From IMG/VR virus record IMGVR_UViG_3300037851_000950, positions 36,702-100,701 of that record: 64,000 nt of DNA; one strand, 5' to 3'. The stretch is from a virus. The translations under genes were made by a program, and so were the position numbers. Positions 19,401 to 42,969 of this stretch are shown piece by piece. The notes beneath the pieces were generated by a model, which made no database searches, was not told where the DNA came from, and worked only from the letters and a program-made list of their open reading frames with translations. How positions within the stretch are numbered: position 1 is the first letter of the stretch; every line of letters begins with the position of its first letter.

Positions 19401-21310
19401 ACAAGAAAGGGAATAAATACAAAGTGCCGTGGTTGTGGGCGGAAGACAGTCCTGAGTTCAAACGACTTACGGTTGCTCAACGTGCGGCAATCAAATTCTT
19501 CAATGATCAGGTTCAACTCGCAGCTCCCGGTAAATGGCAGAGAGGGCAGATTCCGATCATTCGCACATCATCATCCACAAAATGGTTTCGGGCAAAATCG
19601 TCCCTGGGAAAGGGTGACTTCAGAAGTGCCGCCGCCAATACGAACGAAGCAGTAAAGATCTTTTGGGATTATGCTGCAGAGCGCGGTAACTTCAGAACGC
19701 TCGATGACGATCGTTCTTTTCAGGATGTTGCTTACGACCAGTTTGGAGGACAGACATACGTTGAGAACGGAACGATCAATTTCAATTCACAATCGCTAAA
19801 GCAAATCGGCCTCGACCCTCAGTTAAATCTCATTGACGGGGCTCTCAATACTGACTTTGAAACCGATCTTGAGAAAGTAATCACTCTGTTCAGGAGTCAT
19901 TACATCAAAAAGACTGAGATGGACAAAGCGTTGCCTATCTATCAGATATATCGGTCCATATTCAAGTATTACGAACTGGCGCACGGGTTCAAGCAAACCA
20001 ACACGATTCGAATGATGGACGAGTACGTCAACGATCTTGTGTTCAACACCAAGGTTGCTGAAGATGCTGCGTTGTCCAAAGCAATGAACGTGTCTATGCG
20101 TCTGGCCTCTATGGCCCTTATCGGTTTCAACCCGAACGTATTTCTCGGCAACACGCTTCAAATGTGGCTTGCCTCGACCACAGACGCTCTCACCAACACG
20201 ATTACCTCAGATCCCAGATTCCCGGGAGTAAAAAGCTGGGCAAAGGCAACCGGAATCATGACCGCGGCCATGAAGGACACAGCGGAAATGACAAAGCTTA
20301 CACTGTTGCGTCAGAAGTACTTGCCTGAAGATCTCTCGGTCCTTATAGGGGAGAAACACCAGAAGACTGCACGCGGTCTGATCAACGAACAGCTTGCTTA
20401 CGCTCTTGACAGAAGCATGGAGGTCGGTGTTCGTACGCATCATTTGGTCGCTCAGATGGTGAAGGACGGTACTTATGATGCTCACTACGTTACCCGTGAG
20501 AAAGGCGAGGATGGAATTGAACGCTGGGTTGTCAAATATGACAAGAACAAAGACCCTCGTTTCAGTGGTGAAGACGGTAAGCTGTTTTACGATGCTCTCA
20601 AGAAGTCGATGCGTGAAAAAGGCGAGCTTGACGCTACCGGCGAAATCACCGGCGCTTACGATTGGCATTTGCGCGAACGTCTGAAAGCTTACATCAACCA
20701 GGGCATAGGTACTTTTGACCGGGATCTTGCATCTCCCTGGGCACGTCACTCGCTCATGTTTGCAATATCCCAGTTCCGCAACTGGTTTACTCAACGCTTT
20801 CAGCGGATTACCAAACTACCCTATGATGCAGAGATCATGGGCGATTACAAGAAAGTCAATGACGAAGTTGTATGGTCGAGCGAACCGATGAAGGGTTTGC
20901 TCTGGACTCTTTCGGATATGCACTCGATTGTGAAGAAAGCTGCCAAAGGTGAATGGAAAGAAGTTTCTCAAACTGATAAACGAAATCTGACGTACATGAG
21001 CATATCAACAGGAGCGGCTCTGGTTTTGTTTGCTCTCTCTGTCGCTTTGCTTGAAGATGATGATGATGAAGACTACATACGATTCAAAGTTATTACCAGC
21101 AACAACATTGCTGACTTGATGTCTTTTGTAACTGCTGGTCCTTATGGTACAATTCTGACAAGTCCTGCTGTGTTTGCCTCTTACTTCTCCAGAGTATTTG
21201 ACAACATGGGGCAAGCAATCGTTTATGGATTTGATGGAGATACCGAAGAAGCCTGGAGAAAAGCAAAAGAAGTAATACCGATTGTAAACCGTTTCCCTGA
21301 ATCAGAATAA
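16499..21310 (+). CDS. Large ejection protein: ART-PolyVal-like N-terminal domain + PD-(D/E)XK nuclease domain + helical body with C-terminal membrane helix, 1603 aa
   Basis: ATG at 16499 overlaps the RNAP TGA. ART-PolyVal signature: APNG..S.L, FKTWFGDWE, LDENWEPKIFWHGT, FTTDRESAEDYA, VYPVYL, SIKSIENDGNYS. RecB/Cas4-type nuclease motifs: GTKYH, AGTIDLL, IYDLKT, YALQTAYY. Hydrophobic helix STGAALVLFALSVALL near the C-terminus. Confidence 0.75.
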   Translation: MACIEKYKAPNGEFSHLHAQLVDQLGSWRGDHAYLEIHDEAFKTWFGDWESEYGLRNRGNKNAGTFNRSEGPGEPVPYPSLDENWEPKIFWHGTNTDKIKSFNQEENNFTTDRESAEDYAREMALLKGGSPKVYPVYLRIRQRDLRAGHIKINGDRVIVTADARDSIKSIENDGNYSKWGKIFESSIKEEQPEMDPKKLRLKLIDSAALIQAPTGENANFYGYQGKSLDRTSTKVDKYVRYRGDESGKAYSDVGTKYHKIMELLVNGASPEHIGDLSNELVRAGFPPIDDKIEGAFIREMWYEIQELRKTGELIAEFRAARIDKGYAGTIDLLYIDKKTGKARIYDLKTAHETPWKKNPPEGTNMTKDVWSISDFNYYKAERYALQTAYYEDLISAGDTVTDRPPLQVEGIFVMPTEVKYDDQGNVALVRLLPTENVKQWSRGSGRSFYSNAVRQVKNDLENQEIAEGFKGRPTGLGDSGNFLRQALGAHIDSTEALDARATNFVERNSDEKTFTLMDEKPVAWRSDNKQDRIAQVKELFIRMDQNHAGNMTSGVETFFGGEFRNPKASSAGSMFTLKHNTVTKEGAITVTYARSYRLHSILNYSNAKNVIKLSTIKGFEQYSDVMLVHRGDGAYDLLTFTNIPHYTRFDVKNKDKNFTRKLRVDGDSIYGNHFSPYTSENLGVTLQNNFGDFTRMRLGLIALELQKENPSMNVNSIIVDYIADKSLTSPHGILLDQLTPQISHLNNIEAIKPIMPERIREVIGTARKSNLAAGDALAELNTFLQAELSEPFADKLSKQIDRFSRNEITRDELANELMNGVNGMRHYLRQKNLKSADVDQMKNLLSSDPYFMALARAWVVLKGMGFDPEKDVSDQFLGQITYWIKSPTATGRKTLDKFFDLFRQHVDNIKQEMQKFLHVKEPVFRDLVNEDPLVKRGIPVVDSHAGGSDAILAMTRSVMEPLIMTRLDKKGNKYKVPWLWAEDSPEFKRLTVAQRAAIKFFNDQVQLAAPGKWQRGQIPIIRTSSSTKWFRAKSSLGKGDFRSAAANTNEAVKIFWDYAAERGNFRTLDDDRSFQDVAYDQFGGQTYVENGTINFNSQSLKQIGLDPQLNLIDGALNTDFETDLEKVITLFRSHYIKKTEMDKALPIYQIYRSIFKYYELAHGFKQTNTIRMMDEYVNDLVFNTKVAEDAALSKAMNVSMRLASMALIGFNPNVFLGNTLQMWLASTTDALTNTITSDPRFPGVKSWAKATGIMTAAMKDTAEMTKLTLLRQKYLPEDLSVLIGEKHQKTARGLINEQLAYALDRSMEVGVRTHHLVAQMVKDGTYDAHYVTREKGEDGIERWVVKYDKNKDPRFSGEDGKLFYDALKKSMREKGELDATGEITGAYDWHLRERLKAYINQGIGTFDRDLASPWARHSLMFAISQFRNWFTQRFQRITKLPYDAEIMGDYKKVNDEVVWSSEPMKGLLWTLSDMHSIVKKAAKGEWKEVSQTDKRNLTYMSISTGAALVLFALSVALLEDDDDEDYIRFKVITSNNIADLMSFVTAGPYGTILTSPAVFASYFSRVFDNMGQAIVYGFDGDTEEAWRKAKEVIPIVNRFPESE

Positions 21311-27971: not shown

Positions 27972-28928
27972 ATGAGCCTCCGACTGATCAAATACTTTCG
28001 CGGACCAACATTCACTGCCTCTGAATGGACAGTTGCTAATCCTGTCCTCGCCAAAGGTGAAATTGGATATGAGTTGAACGGTTCTTTGGTTACGGCTGCC
28101 AAGGTCGGCAACGGTGTGCTTGCGTGGAATGATTTGAGCTATCTGGGGGAGGACATCTACAATTACGTCGAGGAGGTAACCAATCCCATCGGAGATGCTC
28201 AAGGCTCTCTTCAGGGACTTACTGTCGCGGAGATCCTCAATAAGATGCTTTCTCCTTACGAGATCCCGACTTTTCAAAATATTCGCAACAATGCTCGCGG
28301 CGGATCTGATTATCAGAACATCGCCCTGATGGAGGTTGGCCAGGTAATTTCTGGTCCGGTATCGATTATCTACAATCTGCTGAATGCTCAGAATCTTTCC
28401 GGTTCTACACCAATCAATGTCACAGCAGCCGGCGTATTTGCAAACGAAGGCAACTTTGCCAACAGCGGTAACATTTCCCTCACTCTTGCTTCTCCGCTCA
28501 ATCCATCCACTCCTCTGACCATTACCATCACAATGAAGAACACCCATCTTCAAGGTATGACCGGAGGAGTGGATGCGACCACGCAAATCAAATATCGCGC
28601 TCGCGCAATGTGGGTATCTTCTGCTCTTACCGACATTCTTTCTGGTGCGACCTTCATGTCCCAGGCGAATCAGCAGTATTCGATTACCGATGACTACAAG
28701 CAGGATTACAGTTTCTATGGCAACGGGTATAGCTGGATTGCAATTCCTTCCATGCTGAATCCGACCAATGTGATTTTTACAGACGTCACTAATCCGAATG
28801 CGCCTGCCGATTATGCCATGGAAGCAAAGGGCACGCTTTCAATTAATAACGGAGTCGCTACTTACAACTATGTGTTGTATCGCTCTACTTATTTTCTCAT
28901 TAACCCAACTAAACTCAGAATATCGTGA
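27972..28928 (+). CDS. Fibre protein with Mtd_N (major tropism determinant/hyaluronidase N-terminal)-like domain, 318 aa
   Basis: N-terminus TASEWTVANPVLAKGEIGYE...KVGNGVLAWNDLSY matches the Mtd_N consensus (W...NPVL..GE.G.E.DT..K.GDG...WN.L.Y). Confidence 0.7.
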   Translation: MSLRLIKYFRGPTFTASEWTVANPVLAKGEIGYELNGSLVTAAKVGNGVLAWNDLSYLGEDIYNYVEEVTNPIGDAQGSLQGLTVAEILNKMLSPYEIPTFQNIRNNARGGSDYQNIALMEVGQVISGPVSIIYNLLNAQNLSGSTPINVTAAGVFANEGNFANSGNISLTLASPLNPSTPLTITITMKNTHLQGMTGGVDATTQIKYRARAMWVSSALTDILSGATFMSQANQQYSITDDYKQDYSFYGNGYSWIAIPSMLNPTNVIFTDVTNPNAPADYAMEAKGTLSINNGVATYNYVLYRSTYFLINPTKLRIS

Positions 28929-31027
28929 GCTGGCTACTGAGTACATTTCTGGAACCTAACTTTAACGGTGCGTTGATGGACGCTCTTTATTTGAAGGGAG
29001 GGTTTCGTATTGTCAATACGCAAGCACAAATGCTTGCCATCCCCTACCTCTATCGCACGCTCAACGACAAAGAAGCAACTGTTGTTTATGTAAGAAGTAC
29101 GAAGATTCTTTACCAGCTCACGACTAATCCGTCCGGAGATTCGACAGCACTCACTGACTGGGAACCCATCGAACTCGGTGGTTCCAGTTCATTTCGTCCG
29201 GTCGGTGAATGGGATCCTTACATGAATCTTCCGGAACTCAGCGATGCCGGTGCGGCGGGAAGAAACGGAGAGTTTTACTTTGTAATCAACTGTCCGAGTC
29301 CGGATGTATTTACAATTCCCGGATTGTTTCAGGATACTGCAGTCACTCTGAGTAACGGTGCGATGATTGTATCAGTAGGTAACTATTGGACCGCAATCTC
29401 TCAGACTACCTCTTGGGATGCCTTGGTAAAACCCCAAGTCATTATTGATTATGTAAATGGAATAGTTATTCCTCACACCCATCATGTGAGCGACATCGTT
29501 GGCTTTGGTGACATCACGGGTGATTTCTACACGATTGCAGATACTGCAGATCACACCATTCCATTCGATACTGTTCCGAACCTGGCAATTACAGAAGTCG
29601 AGTTCTTACGTACCTGGTACTACACAAAGATCAATATCGATTCTCAATTCCTGCGTAAGGTTGGTGACACTGGAGTATTCGCTTTCACTTTTGCCAACAA
29701 TCAGGGGATTGATTCTGACGGAACTGCAGGCATCGACGTACTTAATATTGGAACACAAAATGCGGACATCATCAATATCGGTAAGATTGGGGGTACAGTC
29801 AACATCAACGGAACTGTCAACTACAACAATCAGACAAACCTTGCGATTACTGACAAGCTCATCCGTCTCAACGTCAATGGGGCTGGAGGCAGCGGTTCGG
29901 GAGTGGGTTTCGAAATCGAAGAAGGCGGTACGGGTGTCATTACCGGATATGTAAAGACCAACGGTGCCCGGGACGGATACCTGTTCAATACCCCAGCCTC
30001 GCTTTATGATGCGGATCTGAATTTCTCTGCCCTTTCAGCCAACAGGGTATTCACTTTCCCAGACTCCTCTGGCACCCTGGCGCTCGTAGCCTCTACGCTG
30101 TCTACCAGCCTTGCCAGCGGGAAAGTGTGGCTTGGTAACGGCGGTGGTACTGCAGCGCAGGTAACCCTTTCGGGGGACGTAACTGTCGACAATGCCGGGG
30201 TCACGGCGATCGGTGCCAATAAGGTGCTGACCTCCATGATCCTGAACTCAAACGTCACCTATGCCAAGATCCAGAATGTCACCGGCACCCGGCTCCTGGG
30301 TCGGTACACCGGCTCCTCGGGGGTCATCGAGGAGGTAACCCTCAATTCTGATCTGGAATTCAATGGTTCAGCCATCCGGACGGCGGCCTTTACCGGCGAC
30401 GTAACCAAGGCGGCCGGCGGGACGGCCCTTACCATAGCCGATGACGCGGTGACCTACGCCAAGATGCAGAATGTGGCCTTCAATAACAGGGTCCTGGGAC
30501 GCGTTTCCGGGGCCGCTGGCGACGTCGAGGAGCTGACCGGGACGCAAGTCACCGCTCTGCTCGATGCCTTTACCAGCGGGCTAAAAGGGCTGGCTCCGGC
30601 CTCTGGCGGAGGTACGACCAACTTTCTTCGGGCGGACGGTACTTGGGCGGCACCAGGCGGCACCGGCCACGCGATCTACAATGGTGCGGACGTATCACCC
30701 CTTACCCAACGTACCCCTTTAAGGTTCCGGAACGGGCTGACGGCCTCGGACGTGGCTTCGGAAACGGTTGCCGAGCTGGGCGGAGATATTCTGGCGAACA
30801 CGGCAATTACCGGCGCTTACATCCTTTCCTTAAATACAAAGGCCGTAAGTCTCTTTGCGTCAGCTCCCACTCTCAATTCCGGTGACAAAATCATGTTTAT
30901 GGGAGTTTGTACTACTCCGCCTGCGGCAGCTCCGACAAATGGTATTTATATTTGGGTAGAGGCGGTTAACGGAGTTTACGAACTTCGGATAATGGATTCT
31001 GGCGGTAACATCAAAGGATTATCATAA
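28925..31027 (+). CDS. Tail fibre protein, 700 aa
   Basis: GTG start overlapping the upstream TGA. HTH metal-binding fibre motif (PHTHH), VTYAK(I/M)QNV repeats and a GLAPASGGGTTNFLRADGTW hinge. Confidence 0.75.
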   Translation: MSWLLSTFLEPNFNGALMDALYLKGGFRIVNTQAQMLAIPYLYRTLNDKEATVVYVRSTKILYQLTTNPSGDSTALTDWEPIELGGSSSFRPVGEWDPYMNLPELSDAGAAGRNGEFYFVINCPSPDVFTIPGLFQDTAVTLSNGAMIVSVGNYWTAISQTTSWDALVKPQVIIDYVNGIVIPHTHHVSDIVGFGDITGDFYTIADTADHTIPFDTVPNLAITEVEFLRTWYYTKINIDSQFLRKVGDTGVFAFTFANNQGIDSDGTAGIDVLNIGTQNADIINIGKIGGTVNINGTVNYNNQTNLAITDKLIRLNVNGAGGSGSGVGFEIEEGGTGVITGYVKTNGARDGYLFNTPASLYDADLNFSALSANRVFTFPDSSGTLALVASTLSTSLASGKVWLGNGGGTAAQVTLSGDVTVDNAGVTAIGANKVLTSMILNSNVTYAKIQNVTGTRLLGRYTGSSGVIEEVTLNSDLEFNGSAIRTAAFTGDVTKAAGGTALTIADDAVTYAKMQNVAFNNRVLGRVSGAAGDVEELTGTQVTALLDAFTSGLKGLAPASGGGTTNFLRADGTWAAPGGTGHAIYNGADVSPLTQRTPLRFRNGLTASDVASETVAELGGDILANTAITGAYILSLNTKAVSLFASAPTLNSGDKIMFMGVCTTPPAAAPTNGIYIWVEAVNGVYELRIMDSGGNIKGLS

Positions 31028-31410
31028 TGGGACTCAAGACAATACAATCCGTATCCGGAGAAGCTTCAACCACCGACGACAGCACTTGGGTATCCGTTGC
31101 TACATTTTCGGTTGGCTCAAACTGTTCAATCAGGATTTCGAACATCTTTGCTCTTGGAAGAACTACGAACGGTACAGTAGGACAGCATGCGTACGCCGAA
31201 GCGCTTCACCGCGCCAGGCGTGTTTCTGGTACGCTGACTCTTCAGGGATCGATCGTATTTTTGATGACTTTCACGACTGGATCAGACGCAGCACTTACAA
31301 GTTGTGCCATGCAGTTAATTGTTTCAGGTGGAGATCTCATCCTACAAGTAAAAGGTGTGGCCGGAAGGAACATCGACTGGTATGGTGGCTTCACGGTAAC
31401 ACTTAACTAA
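31027..31410 (+). CDS. Small beta-rich fibre tip/accessory protein, 127 aa
   Basis: TAATG-coupled between two fibre genes; all-beta composition. Confidence 0.5.
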   Translation: MGLKTIQSVSGEASTTDDSTWVSVATFSVGSNCSIRISNIFALGRTTNGTVGQHAYAEALHRARRVSGTLTLQGSIVFLMTFTTGSDAALTSCAMQLIVSGGDLILQVKGVAGRNIDWYGGFTVTLN

Positions 31411-34400
31411 TGGCCGTACGGATACGATTCAGAAAATATTACGAGTGCGACACCGAAGCTGAACGCAATTTAGACTGGGGTGCCGACTCGATAATCTATA
31501 CTCTCGATACCAGCAAGTATTTCAAGATTCTTGCTGGCGATTATGTCGAGATTCCGCCAGACGAGGTTGTCTTCGCTTCGCCTATTCCGCTTACCAAAAT
31601 TGCAATCAGTGGTGTTGCTGATGGATCTCGCTTCTTGCGGGATGACGGTGCCTGGGCAGATCCCCCTGGAGGTGGTGCCAGTATCTTCACCGAACTGCTT
31701 GACGTGCCTGCATCCTATACAGGACACGCATTGAAGCTCACCCGGGTCAACGCTGGTGAAACCGGGCTTGAATTCTACACACTCCCGTCCTACCAGCCCT
31801 TGGATGCCGACCTGACGGCCATTGCCGCACTGTCGGGGTCCACGGGTTTTCTCAAGAAGACTGCTCCTGATACCTGGTCGATTGATACCGGAACTTACGT
31901 ACTGAGCAGTGATGCCTGGCTTGCTGCAAGCGGAGTTACGCTTACTGGCAACAACACAATTACAATGGGCGTAAATACGATTACCTTTTCTGGTAATCGT
32001 GTGTCTTTCACTCCGGATGCAACAAATGCCGGTATTAATGTGGGTTCCATCTCTGCCAATCCGTCTGGCTCCATCACTGGAGATATATGGTATAGAACAT
32101 CCGATGGAACTTATTGGGGCAAGCACGGCGGCGGTAATGATGTTTTTGCATTTGCCGGTAGCGTATCCACAAACCAGATACCGTATAGTACGGGCGTTGG
32201 GACCGGAAGGCTTGCGGGAAGCACAGGACTTACGTATACTACATCTGCAGGATTGTCTGTGTCAGCTACAAACGGCAGTACAATAACAAGTACTGTTGCG
32301 TCTACGATGCTTACGCTAAGCACGGGTAGCAATACAGGCGCTATTGCGATGATCAGTAATACAGTTCAGCGCAATCGTCTGCTTTGGACAAACGTGCTTC
32401 CGGCGTACTTTGAGAGTGGACTCGGTGTGGGGTCAATGAACGCCAACGTGTCTTCGTTCTGGGTGAACGGAACAACCTTACTTGCAAACGCAAGTACAGA
32501 TACCTTAACATCCTCAACCAGACTCGACGTTCGTGGTGTAAGCGGAGGAAATATCTGGGTCGGCAAGGATAGTACGGGGACCGAACGATTGACATTTACC
32601 GATACAGGTCTTACTACAATCAAGACCGAACTGGGTACTACGTTCAGGATTCAGAATGCGGCAAACACCGCAGCACTTGCCTTTGTAACCAACTCTTCAA
32701 ACCCATCTATTACACAGACTGGAGGTAATTCCTTTGATATTAGTCACTCGGTAGGTCCCCGACTTATGGTCGGAAGCGCTCCATATTTTGTAGTTGTGAG
32801 TGGAAACCACACAACGGTAGAGTCTGCTGGAACCACTGCTCCTACAAACGCAGCCACTCAAATAAGCTCTATCAAATTCAACCTCAAGAACATGATCTGG
32901 AACGGCACTGATGCTGATTCAGGATTCTATACCTTTCAGAACGTTGCGAGTACATCTACGAATACCGAAAGCAACCTGGTCCTGACTTACGAGACCGGTG
33001 CTAACTACTATGATCATAAACCGAACACGGTTGTCTCTACTCTTCTGAAAGTTAACAATAGCGGTGGACTTACACTCGGTAATCCGTCGAGCTATGTCAT
33101 CGTTGGCCTTGCTACATCTTCTGTTGCGGGTTCGATTTACATTGAAGGAAGTGCAACCCCATCTCTTACATTCGCCACCACTTCCGGGGCCACGAGACAG
33201 TGGAGTTTTATAAGCGGAGTAAGCGGAACCGACCTTACACTTCGCTACGCTGCAGCATCTTCAACTGAACTGATGTACTTCAGTGGACCTAATTTGAGCG
33301 TGGGTTTCGGCGGAACTACTGATTCAACCACAAGAGTCGGAATAAGGGGGATAAGCGGGGGAAGCATCCTGACACTGAAGGACAATACAGGTTCGGCCAT
33401 AAGGTTTTCTGTGAGTGATGCTGGTTTACTAACTGTTAATGGTGCAAGTACATTTAACAACTCTATAACTTTAGCGGGAACTAATAATGCGTTTGCCAAT
33501 ACCTCTACATTGACTTCAGGTGGGGCAAACGCAATATCTCACACTGGTGGGTATACTCATTCCTCTGCAACAACGTCATCTTTCAGTGCAAGTGGAACAG
33601 TCAATACAACGGGCACTGCGGTTGTAAAAGTATTCCAAAGTGCACATAGTATTACTGCTGCTATCGACTACACTGGATTTTATCACAATCCAACCAATCC
33701 TTCTAATATATCCGGGGTGCATTTGGCGTTTCATGCCGTGACAGGTTCCTATCTTGCAGGTACAGCTTTACCGTCAACGGTTGGTCTTTACAGCGTTAGT
33801 TCCTCAACGAACGCAACGGTGAACGCGGCTGTTTATGAGAACACTCATGCGGGGACGTCTGCTGCCATACAGATGATGTTCCTCAATGACGGGGGTAGAA
33901 GCGGTAGGATTACCATGACTTCGCAGGCAAACTCAATATTTGCAAACACATTCTTTATAACAACAAGTGCCAACGATGTCCCCCTCATTTTAGGTACGAA
34001 TGGCAACACCCCACGTATCACGATTGGCGGTACTGGTGTTATCACTCTTCACACAACTCCTGCTGCTGCTTCTGCAAGTGCTGATAAATTCTTAATGCGA
34101 GATAGCACAGGTGTTCTTCAGGAACTTACTATGACGGGTACTCCTGATGGAACCAAGTTCTTCAGAGATGACGGCTCGTGGCAGTCTGTGACCAGTGGAT
34201 TCAGTGATCCGATGACTACCAGAGGTGACATTATCGTTAGAAATGCCTCAAACGTAACAGCAAGATTAGGTGTCGGCACTGCAGATCAGGTTTTGACCAG
34301 TGACGGCACAGACGTTTTCTGGGGATCTCCTCCTGGAGGAGTCAGTGGTGGATTGTACTTCAAATTCGATACCTCGACTTCTTCTGCTGATCCAGGCTCG

Positions 34401-37256
34401 GGCGATGTCAGATATGACAACGCAACTCCTTCTTCAGTAGCTAACATCTACATCAGCGAAACTTCTTCGGAAGGCATCGATATTTCTACCGTCCTGGATA
34501 ATCTGGCAACCAATGATAGAATTTTGATTCGTCAGTCCAGTGATCCGACAAAAGCTCAATTGTTCCAAGTCAGCGGGTCTATTACCGACAACGGTGCTTG
34601 GAGGACGATTCCTGTAACCTATGTGTCAGGTGGAAGCGGAGGACTTCCTGGTAATGGAAAGGATCTCTCCATATCGCGAGTAACTACTCCGCCGGCCAGC
34701 GGCGGATACACTAATCTGACCCAATTCATTGCTCAGACGGCTTGGAGACTTTTCTACTCTGATGCTAATGGAGATGTCCAGGAACTTGCTCTCGGTGCTT
34801 CAGGAAACTTCCTTCAGTCAAACGGTGCATCCTCGGTACCTACTTGGGTCGCCCCTGCAGGCAGTGGGGACATGCTGTTAGGCACAGCGCAAGTTGTCAC
34901 GGCATCAAAAACATTTGATCCGGGAACTTTACTGTTGAACGATACCGCATCTGCGTTTAATTTGATTCTTGGATCAACCGGTACGTCGTTGTCAGCAAAC
35001 AGAACGCTCTCATTTGCTGTGAACAACGCAGACCGTTTGTTGACAATAAATGGAGACACAACTTTATCAGGCGGTACACATTCAGGAACAAACACCGGAG
35101 ATCAAACAATCACACTTACTGGAGATGTAACCGGTTCAGGTACTGGCTCATTTGCCGCAACTATTGCAAACTCTGCTGTTACTCTGGCAAAGATGGCAGA
35201 TGTTGCTACTGCCAGTATATTCTATCGTAAAACATCGGGCACTGGCGTACCAGAAGTACAGACGTTAGCTACTTTAAAAACTGATCTTGGATTAACAGGT
35301 ACGAACTCAGGCGATCAGACTATTACTCTGACTGGAGATGTAACAGGCTCTGGTACAGGATCTTTTGCGACCACTATTGGAAGTAACGTAGTTACATACG
35401 CAAAAATACAACAGTCTTCTGCTGGATTTACAATCATTGCAAAAGCTACTACTGGCGCAGGCAACTATGCAGAATTGGCTGCTGGTGCAGACAGTATTCT
35501 AATGCGCTCTGGCTCTGGCAACCTTACGTTTGGTACTATTGTCACCAACCAAATTGGTACATCTCAGGTAACCTACGGCAAAATACAAAATGCCTCTGCT
35601 GGATTCACTATTCTGGCGAATGCGACGACCGGTGTTGGCGCTTACGCCGAACTGACTGCAGGTACGGATTCCATTCTGATGAGATCCGGCTCAGGAAATT
35701 TGACATTCGGAACGATTGTCACTAATCAGATTGGAGCAAACCAAGTAACCTTAGCCAAAATGGCTCAGGTAGCAACAGCTACTGTCTTCTATCGCAAAAC
35801 TGCTGGTACAGGAGATCCCGAGGTTCAGACACTGGCTACACTTAAAACTGATCTCGGTCTTACTGGTACAAACTCTGGCGACCAGACATCCATTGTTGGA
35901 ATAACTGGTACAAAGGCTCAATTTGATACTGCTGTTACAGACGGCAACTTTATGTATGTTGGCGATGCGCCGACAGCACACACTCATACGCTTGCTGATA
36001 TCACAGATGTAACTGCAAGTGCTACGGAAGTCAACCTTTTGGATCTCTCTGGTCTCACTGCTGGATGGGTATTACGCGCAACAGCAGCTACAACAGCAGC
36101 GTGGGGACAGCTTCTCGGATCTCAAATCAGTAACGACCTTGGCTGGATCACAGGGAACCAAACTATCACTCTTTCAGGGGATGTAACTGGCTCGGGTACA
36201 ACCGCCATCACTACTGCTATTGGAGTTAATAAGGTAGTGTACTCTATGATTCAGCAGGCGTCAGCCGGTTTTACAATATTAGCAAAGGCGACTACCGGTG
36301 CTGGTAACTATGCTGAACTTGCAGCAGGAACAGATTCGGTTCTCATGCGTTCGGGTTCTGGAAACATTACTTTCGGAACCATAGTAACCAATCAAATCGG
36401 AGCTTCTCAAGTCACGTATGCGAAAATTCAGAATGCGTCGGCAGGATACACAATTCTCGCAAAGGTCAATACTGGATCTGGTGCTTATGCAGAACTCGCC
36501 GCAAGTGCAGATGGTGTTTTGCGTAGAAGTGGATCTGGAGATCTTGCGTTTGGTTCTTTGGTAACAGCAAATATTGGCGACTCTCAAATTACATACGCCA
36601 AACTGCAAAACGCATCGGCCGGCTACACCATTCTTGCTAAGGCGACTACTGGTTCAGGAGCGTATACTGAACTTGCTGCTATTACCAATGGAGTTCTTGG
36701 TCGTCAAGGATCGGGAGATCTTCAGTTTGCACAAATAGCCAGCTCTCAGATTGCAGATGCCCAGGTTACCAACGCCAAAATGACTAACATGGCGGGTTAT
36801 ACCATTAAGGGAAATATTAACGTAGGTTCTGCGACACCTCAAGATCTTACCGGAACTCAGGTCACTACTCTGCTTGACGTTTTTACGACCACTCTCAAAG
36901 GTCTTGTGCCAGCTTCAGGGGGCGGAACCACGAATTTCCTCAGAGCTGATGGAACCTGGGCTGCCCCTGGGAGCGGTGGGATATCGCGAACTGTGAGCAA
37001 TGTGTCTGCATCGCAGACTCTTGGGGCCGCAGCAACAACAGACTACATCTATTTCGCATCTTCAACCATTACTTTAACTTTGCCTACAGCTGTCGGAAAT
37101 ACCAACCGCTACACTGTGAAAAACGTGGGCTATGGCACAATCACCGTCGAAACTACGAGTTCTCAGCTTATCGACGGTGAGCTGTCCATATCGATTTTCA
37201 CTCGCAATAATTCCGTAGATTTGGTAAGCGATGGTACTAACTGGAACATAATTTAA
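31410..37256 (+). CDS. Very long mosaic tail fibre with internal repeats, 1948 aa
   Basis: T/S/G/A-rich. Common fibre modules: YQPLDADLTAIAAL, MTTRGDIIVR...RLGVGT..QVL, ITLTGDVTGSGT, AHTHTLADITD, FLRADGTW, and C-terminal TLTLPTAVGNTN...DG..W.II. Confidence 0.8.
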   Translation: MAVRIRFRKYYECDTEAERNLDWGADSIIYTLDTSKYFKILAGDYVEIPPDEVVFASPIPLTKIAISGVADGSRFLRDDGAWADPPGGGASIFTELLDVPASYTGHALKLTRVNAGETGLEFYTLPSYQPLDADLTAIAALSGSTGFLKKTAPDTWSIDTGTYVLSSDAWLAASGVTLTGNNTITMGVNTITFSGNRVSFTPDATNAGINVGSISANPSGSITGDIWYRTSDGTYWGKHGGGNDVFAFAGSVSTNQIPYSTGVGTGRLAGSTGLTYTTSAGLSVSATNGSTITSTVASTMLTLSTGSNTGAIAMISNTVQRNRLLWTNVLPAYFESGLGVGSMNANVSSFWVNGTTLLANASTDTLTSSTRLDVRGVSGGNIWVGKDSTGTERLTFTDTGLTTIKTELGTTFRIQNAANTAALAFVTNSSNPSITQTGGNSFDISHSVGPRLMVGSAPYFVVVSGNHTTVESAGTTAPTNAATQISSIKFNLKNMIWNGTDADSGFYTFQNVASTSTNTESNLVLTYETGANYYDHKPNTVVSTLLKVNNSGGLTLGNPSSYVIVGLATSSVAGSIYIEGSATPSLTFATTSGATRQWSFISGVSGTDLTLRYAAASSTELMYFSGPNLSVGFGGTTDSTTRVGIRGISGGSILTLKDNTGSAIRFSVSDAGLLTVNGASTFNNSITLAGTNNAFANTSTLTSGGANAISHTGGYTHSSATTSSFSASGTVNTTGTAVVKVFQSAHSITAAIDYTGFYHNPTNPSNISGVHLAFHAVTGSYLAGTALPSTVGLYSVSSSTNATVNAAVYENTHAGTSAAIQMMFLNDGGRSGRITMTSQANSIFANTFFITTSANDVPLILGTNGNTPRITIGGTGVITLHTTPAAASASADKFLMRDSTGVLQELTMTGTPDGTKFFRDDGSWQSVTSGFSDPMTTRGDIIVRNASNVTARLGVGTADQVLTSDGTDVFWGSPPGGVSGGLYFKFDTSTSSADPGSGDVRYDNATPSSVANIYISETSSEGIDISTVLDNLATNDRILIRQSSDPTKAQLFQVSGSITDNGAWRTIPVTYVSGGSGGLPGNGKDLSISRVTTPPASGGYTNLTQFIAQTAWRLFYSDANGDVQELALGASGNFLQSNGASSVPTWVAPAGSGDMLLGTAQVVTASKTFDPGTLLLNDTASAFNLILGSTGTSLSANRTLSFAVNNADRLLTINGDTTLSGGTHSGTNTGDQTITLTGDVTGSGTGSFAATIANSAVTLAKMADVATASIFYRKTSGTGVPEVQTLATLKTDLGLTGTNSGDQTITLTGDVTGSGTGSFATTIGSNVVTYAKIQQSSAGFTIIAKATTGAGNYAELAAGADSILMRSGSGNLTFGTIVTNQIGTSQVTYGKIQNASAGFTILANATTGVGAYAELTAGTDSILMRSGSGNLTFGTIVTNQIGANQVTLAKMAQVATATVFYRKTAGTGDPEVQTLATLKTDLGLTGTNSGDQTSIVGITGTKAQFDTAVTDGNFMYVGDAPTAHTHTLADITDVTASATEVNLLDLSGLTAGWVLRATAATTAAWGQLLGSQISNDLGWITGNQTITLSGDVTGSGTTAITTAIGVNKVVYSMIQQASAGFTILAKATTGAGNYAELAAGTDSVLMRSGSGNITFGTIVTNQIGASQVTYAKIQNASAGYTILAKVNTGSGAYAELAASADGVLRRSGSGDLAFGSLVTANIGDSQITYAKLQNASAGYTILAKATTGSGAYTELAAITNGVLGRQGSGDLQFAQIASSQIADAQVTNAKMTNMAGYTIKGNINVGSATPQDLTGTQVTTLLDVFTTTLKGLVPASGGGTTNFLRADGTWAAPGSGGISRTVSNVSASQTLGAAATTDYIYFASSTITLTLPTAVGNTNRYTVKNVGYGTITVETTSSQLIDGELSISIFTRNNSVDLVSDGTNWNII
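35090..36830 (+). repeat. Intragenic tandem protein repeats in the 1948-aa fibre
   Basis: About five ~50-aa units of VTY(A/G)KIQ(Q/N)ASAG(F/Y)TILAKATTGAG.YAEL.AG.DS.LMRSGSGNLTFGTIVTNQIG, two VTLAKMA.VATA..FYRKT.GTG.PEVQTLATLKTDLGLTGTNSGDQT units and three TITL(T/S)GDVTGSGT units. Confidence 0.85.
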
Positions 37257-37260
37257 CGCT

Positions 37261-37542
37261 ATGGCCTATCAAGACGAATCAGAAGAAGCCAGGGAAGAAA
37301 CCCTGATTCTTATGCGCAGATTGCTCAAGGTGGTTGAAAGCCTGGGAGTAGTTGATGTTGCTGGCCGTCAACGCGTCGCCATAGATGCCATTACTTCAGG
37401 TCTTACTCTCGCAACCATTACCACCGTATCCAGTGTGACCAACGTAGCTGGCCAAACTGCATTGGCTGGTATGGATCGTGAAATGTATATCAATGCGGCA
37501 CGCACAACTCACAATAACGCAATCAGAAACAATCTAAATTAA
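37261..37542 (+). CDS. Stand-alone ~90-aa fibre adaptor module (paralogue of the duplicated N-terminal domain of 40376..42628)
   Basis: Shares LIL.RRL.K..ESLG..DVA.RQR...DAI...LTL.T.TTV.SVTNVAGQTALAGMDREMYIN.AR with both N-terminal repeats of the 750-aa fibre. Confidence 0.7.
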   Translation: MAYQDESEEAREETLILMRRLLKVVESLGVVDVAGRQRVAIDAITSGLTLATITTVSSVTNVAGQTALAGMDREMYINAARTTHNNAIRNNLN

Positions 37543-37548
37543 AACATC

Positions 37549-40374
37549 ATGGGTCTTGTAAATACTTTGAAAAAGCACATCGATCTCCCGGTATGGGAGT
37601 GGACTCGGTTTGCTCCGGCTGTATCTTCTGCGATAAGCTGCAGTTGTGTTTCCGACAACGGAAACTTTGACAAGAATCACAACGGAAGATATCTGTACTA
37701 TATGATCTCAGGCACTTCCTTTTGGAGGTATGATACCTGGACAGATACTTACCTGCAACTTGCATCTCCGCCAATCGCCACGGCGACGTGGGCTCGAATG
37801 AAGTTCGTGGGTTCGATGGGCTTGGAGGGCATTGCGATTGCTGGCTCATCTTCTACTCTGACAATACCTGGTTACTTTGGCAAATCTCTCAAAGGATACG
37901 ACATTAAGATTGTCGGAGGAACCGGAGACGGTCAACGCAGAACAATTACCGATGTCGCCGAGCCAGTTGTTGTCGACAGCGGTGTACCAACTGCGGTTAA
38001 CAACGTACTCGGCGCAATTACAATTACTGATACTCTCAAGGCTTGGACATTCAATCAATGGGTCGGATACCAGGTTCGCATTGTTGCTGGTCCTGGTGTA
38101 GGTCAGGTACGCAAAATTATAGGTAATACGGCAACAGTATTAACACTCGGTGATTCGACAACTTCTGCTCACGAGTTGTACCATTACAACCCTGCTATTT
38201 TTTCACCTGCAATTTCTGCTACTGCCGGTACTCAGTCAATTTATCAGATTGAGAGTTCTGTAATTACTGTTGATTCTTCTTGGGCTACCACACCTGATGC
38301 AACTTCTCGTTTCAGAATTACATCTGGTGCAATTCTTCTTGCATCCAGCGCGGCAGCTACTCCTTTTTACACTCTTCAACAGTACGATATTGCTACGGAT
38401 ACCTGGTACATTCGTTCGGCATGTACACAAATCATCACGGCTGTCGGAACAGATGGTAGTATTGAGCTCTTTACGGAGAACGCAAGTATCTGGGAAAAGG
38501 GTCTTGCTTCTGGCGGGACAACTACAACTCTTGTCGACTCCAGTAAAAACTGGACAACGAATCAGTGGGTAGGATATTGGCTGCGAATCTGTTCGGGAAC
38601 CGGCGAAAACCAACTCAAGCAAATTGTATCGAACACAGCAACTACTCTGACGTTCTCTACGGGCACAGCTCCGGATACAACCAGTCGTTATCACATTGAA
38701 GGATTCGACGCAGGAATAGCGACATCCGGTTCAGCGTCAAGCATTACCGATTCTACAAAAGCCTGGGCCGTTAATCGCTGGAAGAACTACATGGTCAAAG
38801 TGATTGCGGGAACCGGCAAAGGTCAAGAGATTCCGATTTTGTCGAACACCTCTACTGTTCTTACACTTGTAAAGCCAAGTACATTCACTTTCGACAATAC
38901 AACTGTCTATATCATTCAGGGAGACACTGATAAGAATTTGCTGTTATTGGGAGGACAATCAACACCGGCAATTCTGCATTTGGAGGATGATATGGCAGCT
39001 CTTGGTCGGTGGCAAGACAGTGGCGCCGCACGCCAGGGATACGTTCAGTACTCCTCTCACAAGCCAATTGCGCTCGCGTCCCTTACAGGAAACGGCACTA
39101 CGGCTACCGCAACTACTGCAATGCCGCATAATCTCAAGACAGGTTATGTAGTCAACGTCGGAGGAGCTATAACCAACACTGGTCTTAACGTAACTGGAGT
39201 AACGATTACGGTAACTGGTGCAACCACGTTCACTTATTCAAACGCTACAAACGGTACAGCAACATTTACCGGTCATTCTACGACAACTCTCACCGACTCA
39301 TCCAAGAACTGGACAACTAACCAATGGACAGGCTACATGTGTGTAGTTACTACGGCTGCAGTTACCGCAGCATCTGGTCTTGCAGCAACTCAGACACTGC
39401 AAATTGCATCCAATACAGCAACTACTCTCACTTTTGTCGCAGGCACTGCACCAACCAACGGTGTATCCAGGTATATGATTGTGCCCCGAAATGCCATAGG
39501 TATGATGGCCAATGGCATAGCGACTGGCACACAATCAACAACTACGCTCCAAGATACCAACATCAGCTCATTTAGCACAGGTGCTTCTGGAGGAAGCGTA
39601 AGTGGTAACGTACTTACGGTTACTGCAGTAAGCGCCGGATACTTGTCGATAGGCTCTGTTGTTGCGGGCTCCGGAATTACTTCAGGTTCAACAATCATTG
39701 CGTTCGGACCAAACACGGTTGGCGGAATAGGGACTTACGTTCTGGATCGCAGTTCTTCGTCAACTGGAGCAATAACCGTCACCTCTGCTGGATGGGCTGT
39801 AAACATTTTCGGAGGTCGTCGTTTGAAGATGATTGGAAGTACAGGTCAAGGAATTGAAATTGCGATTACTTCCAATACAGCTAACACGCTTACGTTCGCT
39901 GTAACGACAGCACCAGTTACCGCGGTAACGTCGTATGTGATTGTTCAGCCAGGACTCAAAGGAGTAGGTATTGAAATGAACTGGGTATTCGGAATTACGG
40001 ACTCTAATCTTCGCGGTAAGTACATCATAGTTCCTCGCGGAGGCGCCGTTGCAGGTTTTGATCGTCTGGATATCACAACCGATAGCTGGGAACTTATGTC
40101 AACGACGCCTCAGTCTGAAACATTAACTACCGGAAGCATGTACGCGTATGATCTGGAAAACAGAATTTACTTTACCAAAGATGCTACTCAGCGAGTCTAC
40201 TATCTGGACGTCTTGCTCAATGAGATCCACGGGGCCGGCATCTACCCCTACGCTGCTGGTACAGCAATTATTGGAAATCGAATGGAAGTATTCAAAACCG
40301 AAGATGGATTTAAGTATCTCTGGCTGAACAGACACTCAGCCCAAGAGTGTTTCCGCCAGTTGCTTTTCTATTAA
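37549..40374 (+). CDS. Putative receptor-binding protein: kelch-like propeller blades interrupted by repeated beta domains, 941 aa
   Basis: Blade-like motifs FWRYDTWTDTY, QQYDIATDTW, FDRLDITTDSW, VYYLDVLLNE. About six copies of (L/I)xDSxKxWxxNxWxGYxxxIxxGTGxGQxxxIxSNTxTxLT. Confidence 0.6.
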   Translation: MGLVNTLKKHIDLPVWEWTRFAPAVSSAISCSCVSDNGNFDKNHNGRYLYYMISGTSFWRYDTWTDTYLQLASPPIATATWARMKFVGSMGLEGIAIAGSSSTLTIPGYFGKSLKGYDIKIVGGTGDGQRRTITDVAEPVVVDSGVPTAVNNVLGAITITDTLKAWTFNQWVGYQVRIVAGPGVGQVRKIIGNTATVLTLGDSTTSAHELYHYNPAIFSPAISATAGTQSIYQIESSVITVDSSWATTPDATSRFRITSGAILLASSAAATPFYTLQQYDIATDTWYIRSACTQIITAVGTDGSIELFTENASIWEKGLASGGTTTTLVDSSKNWTTNQWVGYWLRICSGTGENQLKQIVSNTATTLTFSTGTAPDTTSRYHIEGFDAGIATSGSASSITDSTKAWAVNRWKNYMVKVIAGTGKGQEIPILSNTSTVLTLVKPSTFTFDNTTVYIIQGDTDKNLLLLGGQSTPAILHLEDDMAALGRWQDSGAARQGYVQYSSHKPIALASLTGNGTTATATTAMPHNLKTGYVVNVGGAITNTGLNVTGVTITVTGATTFTYSNATNGTATFTGHSTTTLTDSSKNWTTNQWTGYMCVVTTAAVTAASGLAATQTLQIASNTATTLTFVAGTAPTNGVSRYMIVPRNAIGMMANGIATGTQSTTTLQDTNISSFSTGASGGSVSGNVLTVTAVSAGYLSIGSVVAGSGITSGSTIIAFGPNTVGGIGTYVLDRSSSSTGAITVTSAGWAVNIFGGRRLKMIGSTGQGIEIAITSNTANTLTFAVTTAPVTAVTSYVIVQPGLKGVGIEMNWVFGITDSNLRGKYIIVPRGGAVAGFDRLDITTDSWELMSTTPQSETLTTGSMYAYDLENRIYFTKDATQRVYYLDVLLNEIHGAGIYPYAAGTAIIGNRMEVFKTEDGFKYLWLNRHSAQECFRQLLFY

Positions 40375-40375
40375 T

Positions 40376-42628
40376 ATGGCATACGAAGATAGCTCAGAAC
40401 AAGCGAAGGAATCTTCGCTTATATTACTAAGACGATTAGTCAAACTGGCTGAGTCGCTGGGCACAGCAGATGTTGCCCAGCGGCAACGTCTTGTTCTGGA
40501 CGCTATCACAGCAGCACTTACGTTATCGACAGTAACAACAGTTGGTAGTGTTACTAACGTAGCAGGCCAGACAGCTCTTGCGGGGATGGACAGAGAAATG
40601 TACATCAACCAAGCTCGTCAGGCATATTCTGGAATCAGAAATCGAATTATTGATGCTCCCGCCAGCGTTGAAGAAACTCTTGCAGAAACTCAACCAGAAT
40701 TGGCGCAAGAGTCGACTTTGATTTTACTTCGACGTATTGTTAAGCTGGCTGAATCCCTTGGAGCCACCGATGTTGCACAACGTCAGCGGTTGACCTTGGA
40801 CGCCATCGCAGCAGCCTTAACTCTGTCAACCGTTACGACTGTCAGTAGTGTAACAAACGTTGCCGGTCAAACCGCTCTCGCCGGCATGGACCGCGAGATG
40901 TACATTAACCAGGCACGAAATGCGTACTCGGGAATCCGTAGTCGTTTGACCTATCCTCTCGGCGTCTTTACTTCCACTGAGGACGGACTCGTTCCCGCCT
41001 CTGGGGGCGGCACTACGAACTTCTTGCGTGCTGATGGTACTTGGTCTGTCCCCGCCGGTGGTGTTTCGGATGGTGACAAAGGAGACATTAGTGTATCCGC
41101 ATCTGGAGCTACTTGGACAGTCAATGCAAACATTACTAAGACTTGGACAGGAGCTCATACGTTTACAACATCTCAAGTGGTATCACATCTTGAAGATGCT
41201 GGAACAACAACTGTTTTGTATCCGATTAGAGTTCGTCGCACCAGTACTGGTACTCCTGGAGTTGCTTCATCTCCTACTCTTGGAACAAATGGATTGGGGG
41301 TTGGAATTGAATTTGAAATTGAAACTGCTGCTGGAAATAATGAAATAGGAGGATCTATTGAAGTAAAACTCACTGCGTCTGGAAGTACTGTTGAAAATGC
41401 GTTGATGATATTTCGACCTCTTTTTGGAGGATCTTTATCAACCAATCCGAGTTTGACCATTGGAGGCACGACCAATCAATTAACGATTTATACGTCGGTA
41501 TTCCACATGAGTTCGACAACAATGAATATGACATCGGCTCCTGCAGCTGCAGCTATAACAGATGGGTTTCTAATGCGAGTATCTTCAGGCGGTGAAGTTA
41601 AACAACTTACTCTTACAGGAACTCCGAGCTCTACAACTTTTTTAAGAGGTGATGGTACATGGAATACTCCAGTTGGTACTTTTTCGGGTTCAACCACTTC
41701 TGGAAGAATAACTTTTTCAACGGGAACAAATACTTTAAGTGACGACTCTGACTTCACCTTTAATACGAGTGGTAATGTAGTTACTTTAACGAGTGGTAAA
41801 TACAGCAGTGGTGCTACTGACTATGTTGTAGAAGCCAACTCTCTTCAGAGATTAAGGATTGATACCAACGGATATGTTGGTGTTGGGGATACTAACGGTC
41901 GAACTTTTTCAAATCCATTTACTATTTATCATACCCACAACTCATATTCAAGTATTGTGAACGGAGGTGTTTTATTTGCCAATGGAACATCTGCAGGTTC
42001 AATAGCTGCTGGTTTCGGTAGTCAGTACAAAATTGGCATATCAGATACATCAGGTGTGATAAATCATAGTGGAAGATTTTCATATAGTTGGACAACTGTC
42101 AATTCAGTATCGAAGACTCGAATTTCAGCCGATGTCTCAGGTACAGAGAGATCTTATATTGATATTACCACAGACGGATTTGTAACTATCTCGGCAGACG
42201 AATCAAGCAGTACAGCTTCTTCTGAGATTCGATTCAGAATAGATAGTACTCAACGATTTACTTTTGATACAAATGGTTATGGTACTGCAGTGGACTGGAT
42301 TGCTACTTCAGACCGTAGACTCAAGCATAGTATCACTCCGTACAGCGAAGTTCTTCCATCCATCCGGGGACTTCGCGGGAAGCTTTCAACCTACATCCGT
42401 AACTCTGATAAGCACGGTACCCGAGAGGTTGGTTACATTGCCCAGGATGTTGAGTCGTTATTTCCCTTGTTGATCAGCTATGACGCTGACGGCATGCGCG
42501 CACTGTCTTATATGAAGATGGGTGCGATTGCCCTGGAGGGCATCTCTGAGCTGGACGACGAGGTTGAAAAACTCAAGAAAAGAGTAGTAGATTTGGAGGA
42601 AGAAGTCAAACAACTGAAAGCGACATGA
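40376..42628 (+). CDS. Tail fibre with tandem N-terminal adaptor modules and C-terminal peptidase S74 intramolecular chaperone, 750 aa
   Basis: C-terminal TSDRRLKHSI...GYIAQDVESLFP...LSY....AIALEGISEL plus coiled coil is the S74 autocleaving chaperone signature. Two ~90-aa N-terminal repeats. Confidence 0.85.
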   Translation: MAYEDSSEQAKESSLILLRRLVKLAESLGTADVAQRQRLVLDAITAALTLSTVTTVGSVTNVAGQTALAGMDREMYINQARQAYSGIRNRIIDAPASVEETLAETQPELAQESTLILLRRIVKLAESLGATDVAQRQRLTLDAIAAALTLSTVTTVSSVTNVAGQTALAGMDREMYINQARNAYSGIRSRLTYPLGVFTSTEDGLVPASGGGTTNFLRADGTWSVPAGGVSDGDKGDISVSASGATWTVNANITKTWTGAHTFTTSQVVSHLEDAGTTTVLYPIRVRRTSTGTPGVASSPTLGTNGLGVGIEFEIETAAGNNEIGGSIEVKLTASGSTVENALMIFRPLFGGSLSTNPSLTIGGTTNQLTIYTSVFHMSSTTMNMTSAPAAAAITDGFLMRVSSGGEVKQLTLTGTPSSTTFLRGDGTWNTPVGTFSGSTTSGRITFSTGTNTLSDDSDFTFNTSGNVVTLTSGKYSSGATDYVVEANSLQRLRIDTNGYVGVGDTNGRTFSNPFTIYHTHNSYSSIVNGGVLFANGTSAGSIAAGFGSQYKIGISDTSGVINHSGRFSYSWTTVNSVSKTRISADVSGTERSYIDITTDGFVTISADESSSTASSEIRFRIDSTQRFTFDTNGYGTAVDWIATSDRRLKHSITPYSEVLPSIRGLRGKLSTYIRNSDKHGTREVGYIAQDVESLFPLLISYDADGMRALSYMKMGAIALEGISELDDEVEKLKKRVVDLEEEVKQLKAT

Positions 42629-42969
42629 CACTCGCGGCATCAGGAAGTCTTAGTCTGAAAAGCGCGGCAGGGACTGGACGGAATATCCAAGCCGAGTTGG
42701 GAGATACGGGCAACATGACACTTGTTGAAGCCAACGGACTTGCTGATTCGTGGAGCTCTTGTAAAGGAACTGCTTGGAATGTACCTACTTCCTCACCATA
42801 CAAGATTACTGACTGGTATAACTACAACCATAGTTATGCTGCTTGTGATCCAGAAGGAACTTTTATCAGTTTAAGTTGTGATGAATGTGGTACAGGCGAT
42901 TGTGAAATAAGGGCTGACGGTTGTTGCGGATCATATTGTTGTTGCTGCCCTGGAGGATCCTGCACATGA
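42625..42969 (+). CDS. Fibre-tip adhesin-like protein with Cys-rich C-terminus, 114 aa
   Basis: ATGA-coupled to the S74 fibre. N-terminus MTL.ASG.LSL...I.AELG...ITDWY is typical of small tip proteins following S74 fibres. 12 Cys, 11 of them in the last 41 aa. Confidence 0.55.
   Translation: MTLAASGSLSLKSAAGTGRNIQAELGDTGNMTLVEANGLADSWSSCKGTAWNVPTSSPYKITDWYNYNHSYAACDPEGTFISLSCDECGTGDCEIRADGCCGSYCCCCPGGSCT

Follow-up and report, generated by a model that had tools for sequence, protein, structure and literature searches.

Portable or separate elements that attach receptor-binding proteins to the virion are known from several phages. The podovirus adaptors (the N-terminal domain of T7 gp17; gp37 of SP6 and K1-5) are short attachment elements, located at a fibre N-terminus or encoded as a separate protein, which dock on the tail (gp11/gp12) and let different receptor-binding proteins use one socket. 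The receptor-binding proteins of CBA120 (TSP1-4) and G7C (gp63.1/gp66) are joined by N-terminal docking domains into branched adhesins, and in the T4 long tail fibre (gp34-gp35-gp36-gp37) a separate protein constitutes the joint between two trimeric rods. Here we analyse a module of around 90 amino acids (aa) that is encoded three times in 64,000 nucleotides (nt) of viral DNA (IMG/VR record IMGVR_UViG_3300037851_000950, positions 36,702 to 100,701 of that record; this whole stretch is hereafter called the window), once as a free gene and twice in tandem in a tail fibre gene, on either side of a gene encoding a 941-aa protein. Across a large family of small phage virion proteins that has no name, the module is the C-terminal part that stays constant. 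We consider that there is an even chance that it acts as a plug docking its carrier onto the 941-aa protein, a predicted Kelch-type propeller which would serve as a hub joining fibres.

The genes encoding the proteins of 1948, 93, 941 and 750 aa form a run on the plus strand, separated by gaps of 4, 6 and 1 nt: the 93-aa open reading frame (ORF) begins 4 nt past the stop of the 1948-aa fibre and ends 6 nt ahead of the 941-aa gene, and the 750-aa fibre gene starts 1 nt past the propeller stop. Their features are the following (window coordinates):

31410..37256, plus strand: fibre-like gene, 1948 aa, without a Pfam or PHROG family
36972..37256, plus strand: C-terminal domain of the 1948-aa fibre (residues ~1855-1948), with homologues at other module loci
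37261..37542, plus strand: copy 1 of the module, a free gene of 93 aa and a minimal form within the small-protein family
37549..40374, plus strand: 941-aa predicted six-bladed Kelch-type beta-propeller with inserted domains (AlphaFold2 model, structural match)
40376..40654, plus strand: module copy 2, residues 1-93 of the 750-aa fibre (alignment, record search)
40655..40699, plus strand: acidic 15-residue linker between the tandem modules
40700..40954, plus strand: module copy 3, residues 109-193 of the 750-aa fibre (alignment, record search)
40985..41080, plus strand: fibre motif GLVPASGGGTTNFLRADGTW, right behind the tandem modules
42308..42466, plus strand: Peptidase_S74 intramolecular chaperone domain (Pfam PF13884), fibre residues 645-697
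40376..42628, plus strand: whole 750-aa tail-fibre gene

All three module copies could be aligned end to end, copy 2 being 67% and copy 3 62% identical to the free copy, and a block of 21 residues (S58-N78 of the free copy) was unchanged across them. Searching the whole 100.7-kilobase virus record gave exactly three places (E values of 3.9e-55, 3.8e-36 and 4.3e-32), which excludes chance likeness. An earlier note, made from the letters of the window, had reported a ~90-aa module as its own gene and in tandem at a fibre N-terminus, flanking the 941-aa gene and sharing an identical block; the ORFs and the alignment agree with it on each of these points. Read-through or a frameshift joining the 93-aa ORF to the 1948-aa fibre was considered and dropped, because these ORFs do not share a frame, lie 4 nt from each other and each have an ATG of their own, and because the corresponding gaps in relatives range from -40 to +42 nt.

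The DNA of the three copies contained no common repeat seed of 9 nt or longer, and the same codon was used at 13-16 of the 50-61 identically translated positions. Synonymous divergence (dS) was saturated (undefined by NG86, or 4.3) and nonsynonymous divergence (dN) ranged from 0.08 to 0.25, the two fibre copies having a dN of 0.08 with saturated dS. This combination of saturated synonymous sites and low dN indicates that the copies are old and were kept alike by strong purifying selection, and the strict conservation emphasised in the earlier note corresponds to a real, selected domain. The age of the copies also follows from the subfamily tree, since the sister of the free copy is a 93-aa protein of another sample (support 95/90) and not one of the fibre paralogues; the two fibre copies pair weakly (91/49), and the window copies, that 93-aa protein and a protein labelled P0330 form one supported clade (96/85). 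A recent duplication or an assembly artefact is ruled out by the saturated synonymous sites. The persistence of an identical 21-residue block despite this saturation fits three plugs made for one socket.

The viral-contig scan with the 93-aa protein yielded 45 loci with one module in each, whose family members are matched by a hidden Markov model built from the window copies; at these loci the module is nearly always the C-terminal end of an ORF of ~145 aa. A database search gave at least 1901 matches of ~145 aa, all of them 'hypothetical' and without Pfam domains, and an exhaustive profile search gave 704 module-family clusters at 50% identity. The layout comprises an amphipathic helix, the motif D-x3-R-x-R-[VIL]-x-[IL]-D, an extended Thr/Val-rich stretch and a C-terminal helix; ten positions of a 27-row alignment (D32, R36, R38, D42, I44, L48, L50, T52, T55 and Q65) are invariant, also in all the window copies. 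The Thr/Val-rich middle differs by whole TVx triplets, from none to about five extra (window 37261-37539 and 24 loci), a pattern in the sequences that suggests slippage-type length change of a spacer. The usual family member carries a further conserved N-terminal segment of ~50 aa, and the three window copies are without it.

Among the 150 best representatives (73-613 aa), 146 have a module that stops no more than 5 residues from the C-terminus; this placement is true for the free 93-aa copy and untrue for the two fibre copies, which are N-terminal or internal. The sole clear N-terminal fusion besides the window fibre is P0330 (507 aa, module at residues 12-94), and a search of P0330 relatives for gene neighbourhood returned small-protein loci alone. 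Long carriers are fibrous proteins with LTDAQLRA..VPVS-type repeats ahead of the module; at L177-L179 and L199, fibrous proteins of 631-644 aa end in the module and the propeller comes directly next. The three copies seen in the earlier note hold. The module is not peculiar to this locus: it belongs to a widespread family, is usually the C-terminus of a ~145-aa virion protein, and its tandem at a fibre N-terminus is exceptional.

As the earlier note had stated, the module has no named family: neither Pfam nor PHROGs had a match to the module or to its carriers of 145, 644 and 507 aa. Its profile had no matches among the sequences of solved structures, and the ESM Atlas returned unnamed viral clusters alone. 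Concerning the known types of small tail proteins, no Pfam or PHROG match of the T7 gp17-type adaptors was found over the module in P0001 or P0002; for the Tfa, gp38 and gp57A-type chaperones there was likewise no Pfam or PHROG match, and the homologue of phage Pam2 is found in virions. The literature search found no description of either the small protein or the module-propeller pair; most subscription journals were outside its coverage, so absence is unproven.

In 83 of 87 viral loci, the ORF immediately upstream of a propeller-family ORF encodes the module. The 87 comprise 45 module-first and 42 propeller-first loci, with two contigs in both sets; three of the four exceptions are cut by a contig end and the other is just below threshold. 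Propeller-first loci were fetched through the propeller alone, with the profile iterated on the fetched ORFs, and the assessable ones were counted: the module was directly upstream in 108 out of 114 (40/40 viral, 68/74 metagenome), and in a further locus set it preceded the propeller in 23 of 24. The co-occurrence with homologues of the 941-aa protein that had been proposed beforehand as a test of docking is thus present, and the module homologues go with the propeller rather than occurring without it. The free copy of the window obeys this upstream rule; both copies in the fibre come after the propeller instead. L017, L023 and L038 differ in the PHROGs to which their terminase, portal and capsid genes are assigned, and the pair is present in a podovirus-like contig, in the siphovirus Pam2 and in the T4-like myovirus S-CRM01; judged by these sequences, the module and the propeller travel together among phages with unrelated head and tail genes. 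Since the propeller is the sole protein besides the module common to these unrelated chassis, and the N-termini of the carriers vary, we infer that the module is a plug for the propeller.

Several variants of the cassette were observed. A conserved helical ORF of ~53 aa was seen in 52 loci, and in 49 of them (L004, L008, L012, L017, L033, L048 and others) it comes straight after the propeller gene; it has no homologue in the genome of the window, where the tandem-module fibre gene holds that position. Two adjacent module genes precede one propeller in L122 (6731-7946), and two propeller paralogues accompany one module gene in L056/L057 (5983-10955) and L125 (4257-9510). Seven metagenome loci (L128, L130, L133, L137, L149, L165 and L173) encode minimal propellers (~315 aa and ~473 aa), and ahead of these come small proteins that share the layout but are highly divergent, at times with an ORF of 50-65 aa between. 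In age and diversity the cassette far exceeds the subfamily of the window.

The fibre upstream of the free module is also part of the pattern. Homologues of the final ~95 residues of this 1948-aa protein occur at 15 other loci, and in 14 of them (L054, L055, L058, L060, L061, L064-L067, L072, L098, L108, L116 and L123) this domain ends an ORF of 186-1493 aa which stops -40 to +42 nt from the module start; the 15th has a 644-nt gap before the module gene. The small proteins at the loci with this domain are without the usual N-terminal segment, like the window copies. The hint in the earlier note that the C-terminus of the 1948-aa fibre takes part was well placed: its domain belongs to the unit, and this domain and the fibrous carriers both put the module at the distal end of a fibre, beside the propeller.

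The same domain gives some weight to a different socket, in which the module would plug into a baseplate protein or into the knob that ends the upstream fibre, with the propeller and the 750-aa fibre as parallel cargos, each held by a module or module protein of its own, and the adjacency would reflect a small protein adapting the propeller through a different surface. The co-conservation of the domain with the cassette in 14 of the 15 loci is in line with this alternative, as are the N-terminal position of the modules in the 750-aa fibre, which is right for a virion anchor (S74 fibres attach by their N-termini), and the free copy, which has room for one clear interface only. However, the cassette resides in phages with unrelated tails and heads, and therefore there is no virion socket common to all of them; the upstream-fibre domain is present in just 15 of the loci examined; and the variable, chassis-specific part of the carriers is mostly N-terminal, the module being the constant part beside a constant propeller. 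We consider this other socket unlikely.

The propeller assignment of the 941-aa protein, already made in the earlier note, rests on its AlphaFold2 model (predicted local distance difference test, pLDDT, 91.3; predicted template modelling score, pTM, 0.90), whose top structural match was LZTR1 (9mey_B; Z 24.4, root-mean-square deviation 2.6, 269 residues aligned, spanning residues 12-940), followed by other Kelch proteins (KLHDC3, Z 23.0; Keap1, Z 22.4). The model thus corresponds to a six-bladed Kelch-type propeller closed by N- and C-terminal strands, and its best matches are protein- and peptide-binding Kelch domains. At the sequence level, Pfam Kelch_1 gave 15.9 bits on the 941-aa protein (P0003), below the 20.1 cut-off; the Kelch score of a 479-aa homologue was 24.4 bits, with no single stretch passing the cut-off. 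The core consists of residues 1-101, 146-194, 226-309, 385-471 and 805-940, matching the members of ~478 aa, and the remainder corresponds to inserted domains; at least 678 matches of the large form were found. Homologues of 1175 aa and 1326 aa have additional inserted domains alone, and no chain in which the module and the propeller are fused was found. The N-terminal tail of the propeller is nearly invariant across the family (M1, N5, D12, E17, P23) and its residues 1-11 have a pLDDT below 50 in the model; because it is so conserved and yet poorly ordered, it may be a candidate contact for the module.

The public gene call of the propeller is 858 aa long (P0135) and begins at an internal Met. 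The 941-aa start is preferable, since homologues of 931-959 aa can be aligned from residue 1 onwards. Comparing the 941-aa sequence with those of solved structures gave matches at chance level only; Foldseek searches with the model returned generic multi-propeller proteins from the PDB, with a template modelling score of about 0.1, and uncharacterised phage proteins only from BFVD. Two other functions were rejected for the propeller: a major capsid protein, since the capsid protein is encoded elsewhere in the genome, and a podovirus nozzle, since the pair is also present in sipho- and myoviruses.

The module monomer was modelled from a 139-row alignment with a pLDDT of 70.8 and a pTM of 0.30, giving helices at residues 8-26, 62-68 and 74-89 and an extended middle. 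According to this model the module alone does not look like an autonomous globular domain, and therefore it probably folds on a partner; the propeller would be the only partner present in all these genomes. The same features would also suit an oligomerisation or folding nucleus, a helix and beta-strand element that would trimerise, initiate assembly of the chain containing or following it, and be kept as a passive stub in the virion; the copies would be alike through co-assembly, for instance in mixed trimers, rather than through a common socket. Such a nucleus would agree with a non-globular monomer and an amphipathic N-terminal helix, with a number of TVx triplets that varies like a spacer or a shaft, with a module at the start of a trimeric fibre, and with the fact that small genes beside fibre genes are often assembly factors. 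It leaves unexplained the near-obligate adjacency to the propeller and the change from a C-terminal module in 146 of 150 carriers to an N-terminal one in the window fibre, a fibre which already has its own S74 trimerisation chaperone. For these reasons we regard the nucleus as rather improbable.

Cultured phages provide relatives of the pair. The Pseudanabaena siphophage Pam2 encodes gp65 (150 aa; 116.8 bits to the module profile), gp66 (875 aa) and gp67 (53 aa; the downstream gene, L049:12101-12262) in the gene order of the family. Gp66 (L049, Pam2 65292-67919) was deposited as 'flagellar hook-length control protein FliK', yet by homology it belongs with the Kelch propellers; a number of nearby Pam2 products seem to be named after structural look-alikes rather than by function. 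In the T4-like phage S-CRM01, g21 (98 aa, 39 bits to the module profile) is located ahead of g22; B23 has a 98-aa gene in the equivalent position, whose match is not significant (6 bits). Both gp65 and gp66 are listed as mass-spectrometry-positive in Pam2 virions in supplementary table 2, part of PMC9382816, and consequently the small protein is structural, at least in Pam2, and not only an assembly factor.

This result bears on the idea that the small protein is a non-structural chaperone of the propeller and the fibre copies are functionless recombination relics. The position of a small gene directly ahead of a large beta-rich protein, and the lack of a recognisable fold, are what a chaperone gene would show. 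The presence of gp65 in virions, as given in that part of PMC9382816, argues against the chaperone; the strong purifying selection on the fibre copies (dN 0.08, dS saturated) and the N-terminal fusion in P0330, a protein from elsewhere, argue against relics. We judge this combination highly improbable.

We favour the plug onto the propeller, which would work as follows. The plug would fix whatever chain carries it onto the propeller, and the N-terminal parts of the carriers would be chassis-specific anchors or shafts; the variety of the carriers (small proteins, long fibrous proteins, an S74 fibre) fits a docking domain. In most phages the small protein would be a stalk and the propeller a distal adhesin head. 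The system would be expanded in the window: the end domain of the 1948-aa fibre would be followed by the minimal free module and the propeller, and the 750-aa fibre, trimerised by its S74 chaperone, would carry two plugs at its virion-proximal N-terminus. The propeller could then hold together the 1948-aa fibre, the free module and the 750-aa fibre as a hub or joint, either one after another or branched. The docking adaptor proposed in the earlier note is therefore retained in part: the selected domain, the co-occurrence with the propeller and the variety of carriers speak for it, and its specific picture, in which a site is capped by the free copy and the tandem pair adds further heads along the fibre, found no support.

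Some observations weigh against the plug. Adjacency and co-inheritance would also fit a shared pathway without direct binding, and 6 of the 74 assessable metagenome loci have no detectable module-family ORF upstream of the propeller. MDRE-type modules accompany propellers of at least 800 aa in 13 of 14 cases and NQ..GG-type modules those of 440-600 aa in 27 of 27 uncut cases; this match between subfamily and propeller size speaks for the linkage but is confounded by shared descent. The cassette of the window is itself non-standard, without the ~53-aa protein that follows the propeller in 49 loci; both fibre copies precede more chain, where elsewhere the module ends the protein, and their binding mode may differ; and the free 93-aa copy is without an obvious second interface. 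A complex prediction for the 479-aa propeller and the 145-aa small protein of L023, with their own alignments, gave no answer (score 0.00) and counts neither for nor against binding.

Going beyond docking itself, the module and the Kelch propeller might be a chassis-independent plug-and-socket cassette for an accessory adhesin of podo-, sipho- and myoviruses, with the propeller as a multi-port hub. The window would then extend the system, the plug having been transferred to, and doubled at, the N-terminal end of an S74 fibre and a second fibre joining through its C-terminal domain, so that fibres would be daisy-chained or branched. We put this wider model forward tentatively, with some doubt.

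The S74 label given to the 750-aa fibre in the earlier note was correct: PF13884 scored 33.1 bits against a cut-off of 22 over the C-terminal residues 645-697, where S645 and K650, five residues apart within SDRRLK, form a Ser-Lys pair which we take to be the S74 dyad. The C-terminus of this fibre matches many tail fibres, and none of the 213 GenBank phage records matching it spans the N-terminal module region. The motif GLVPASGGGTTNFLRADGTW is also present in the 1948-aa gene (residue 1831) and in a 700-aa gene (28925-31027); its surroundings are common to the three fibre-like genes of the window and have 55-69% identity to fibres in L012/L013. From these sequences, the region looks like a recombination-prone shared cassette.

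Other genes of the window were also inspected. An ORF of 114 aa (42625-42969) overlaps the end of the 750-aa fibre gene by 4 nt; it has no family match, and its C-terminus is very cysteine-rich (~13 Cys among the last 30 residues). The terminase, portal and capsid genes of this phage are located upstream. Two giant ORFs lie on the plus strand: 3237-16499 (4420 aa), with a weak ResIII match and otherwise no family, and 16496-21310 (1604 aa), with ART-PolyVal (29.3 bits, just below the cut-off) and PD-(D/E)XK nuclease domains, resembling phage 'polyvalent' proteins.

The attachment of modular receptor-binding proteins largely sets the host range of phages and offers a handle for re-targeting them. 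The pair analysed here is a widespread and wholly unannotated pair of virion proteins (at least 704 module clusters and at least 678 large-propeller matches), particularly frequent among freshwater and cyanophage-like viruses. Should the module indeed be a plug for the propeller, a function would be assigned to thousands of 'hypothetical' genes and a partner would be named for a Kelch-fold virion protein, with Pam2 gp65/gp66 as a cultured test system. The family-level pattern is solid and widespread, and the mechanism proposed from it is plausible; the triplication in the window is informative as a special case, and the window offers the clearest hint from nature that the plug can be passed between carriers.

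Compared with the known systems, Pam2 is the closest: it has true homologues of the module and of the propeller in the same order. It differs from the window in having a single module copy with the ~50-aa N-terminal segment, plus the 53-aa gene after the propeller; none of the three window copies has this segment, two are part of a fibre, and a 53-aa gene is absent. The passages of the Pam2 paper on these proteins give them no function. The podovirus adaptors have no sequence relationship with the module (no Pfam match); here a Kelch propeller is the putative partner, and most carriers have the module at their C-terminus. The branched adhesin imagined in the earlier note was of the CBA120/G7C type, in which docking is from tailspike to tailspike without a propeller hub, and the module has no detected homology to those complexes. 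The T4 joint is analogous to the chain that may be formed by the 1948-aa fibre, the propeller with the module, and the 750-aa fibre, a chain deduced from gene order only; T4 gp35 has no homology here and is not a Kelch propeller. The 750-aa fibre resembles other Peptidase_S74 tail fibres in having the domain at its C-terminus with Ser645 and Lys650. LZTR1, KLHDC2/3, Keap1 and the KLHL family, many of which bind peptides or protein termini, have a fold like that of the 941-aa protein, which differs from them in falling under the Pfam cut-off and in having more than 600 inserted residues; a fold match shows no function. Kelch-domain proteins are mentioned as phage virion components, e.g. CBB_552 of the jumbo phage CBB, in the section of PMC5259590 that deals with them. 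Docking modules as a kind are already known; what is plausibly new here is an undescribed family of docking modules for receptor-binding proteins with an unusual partner fold.

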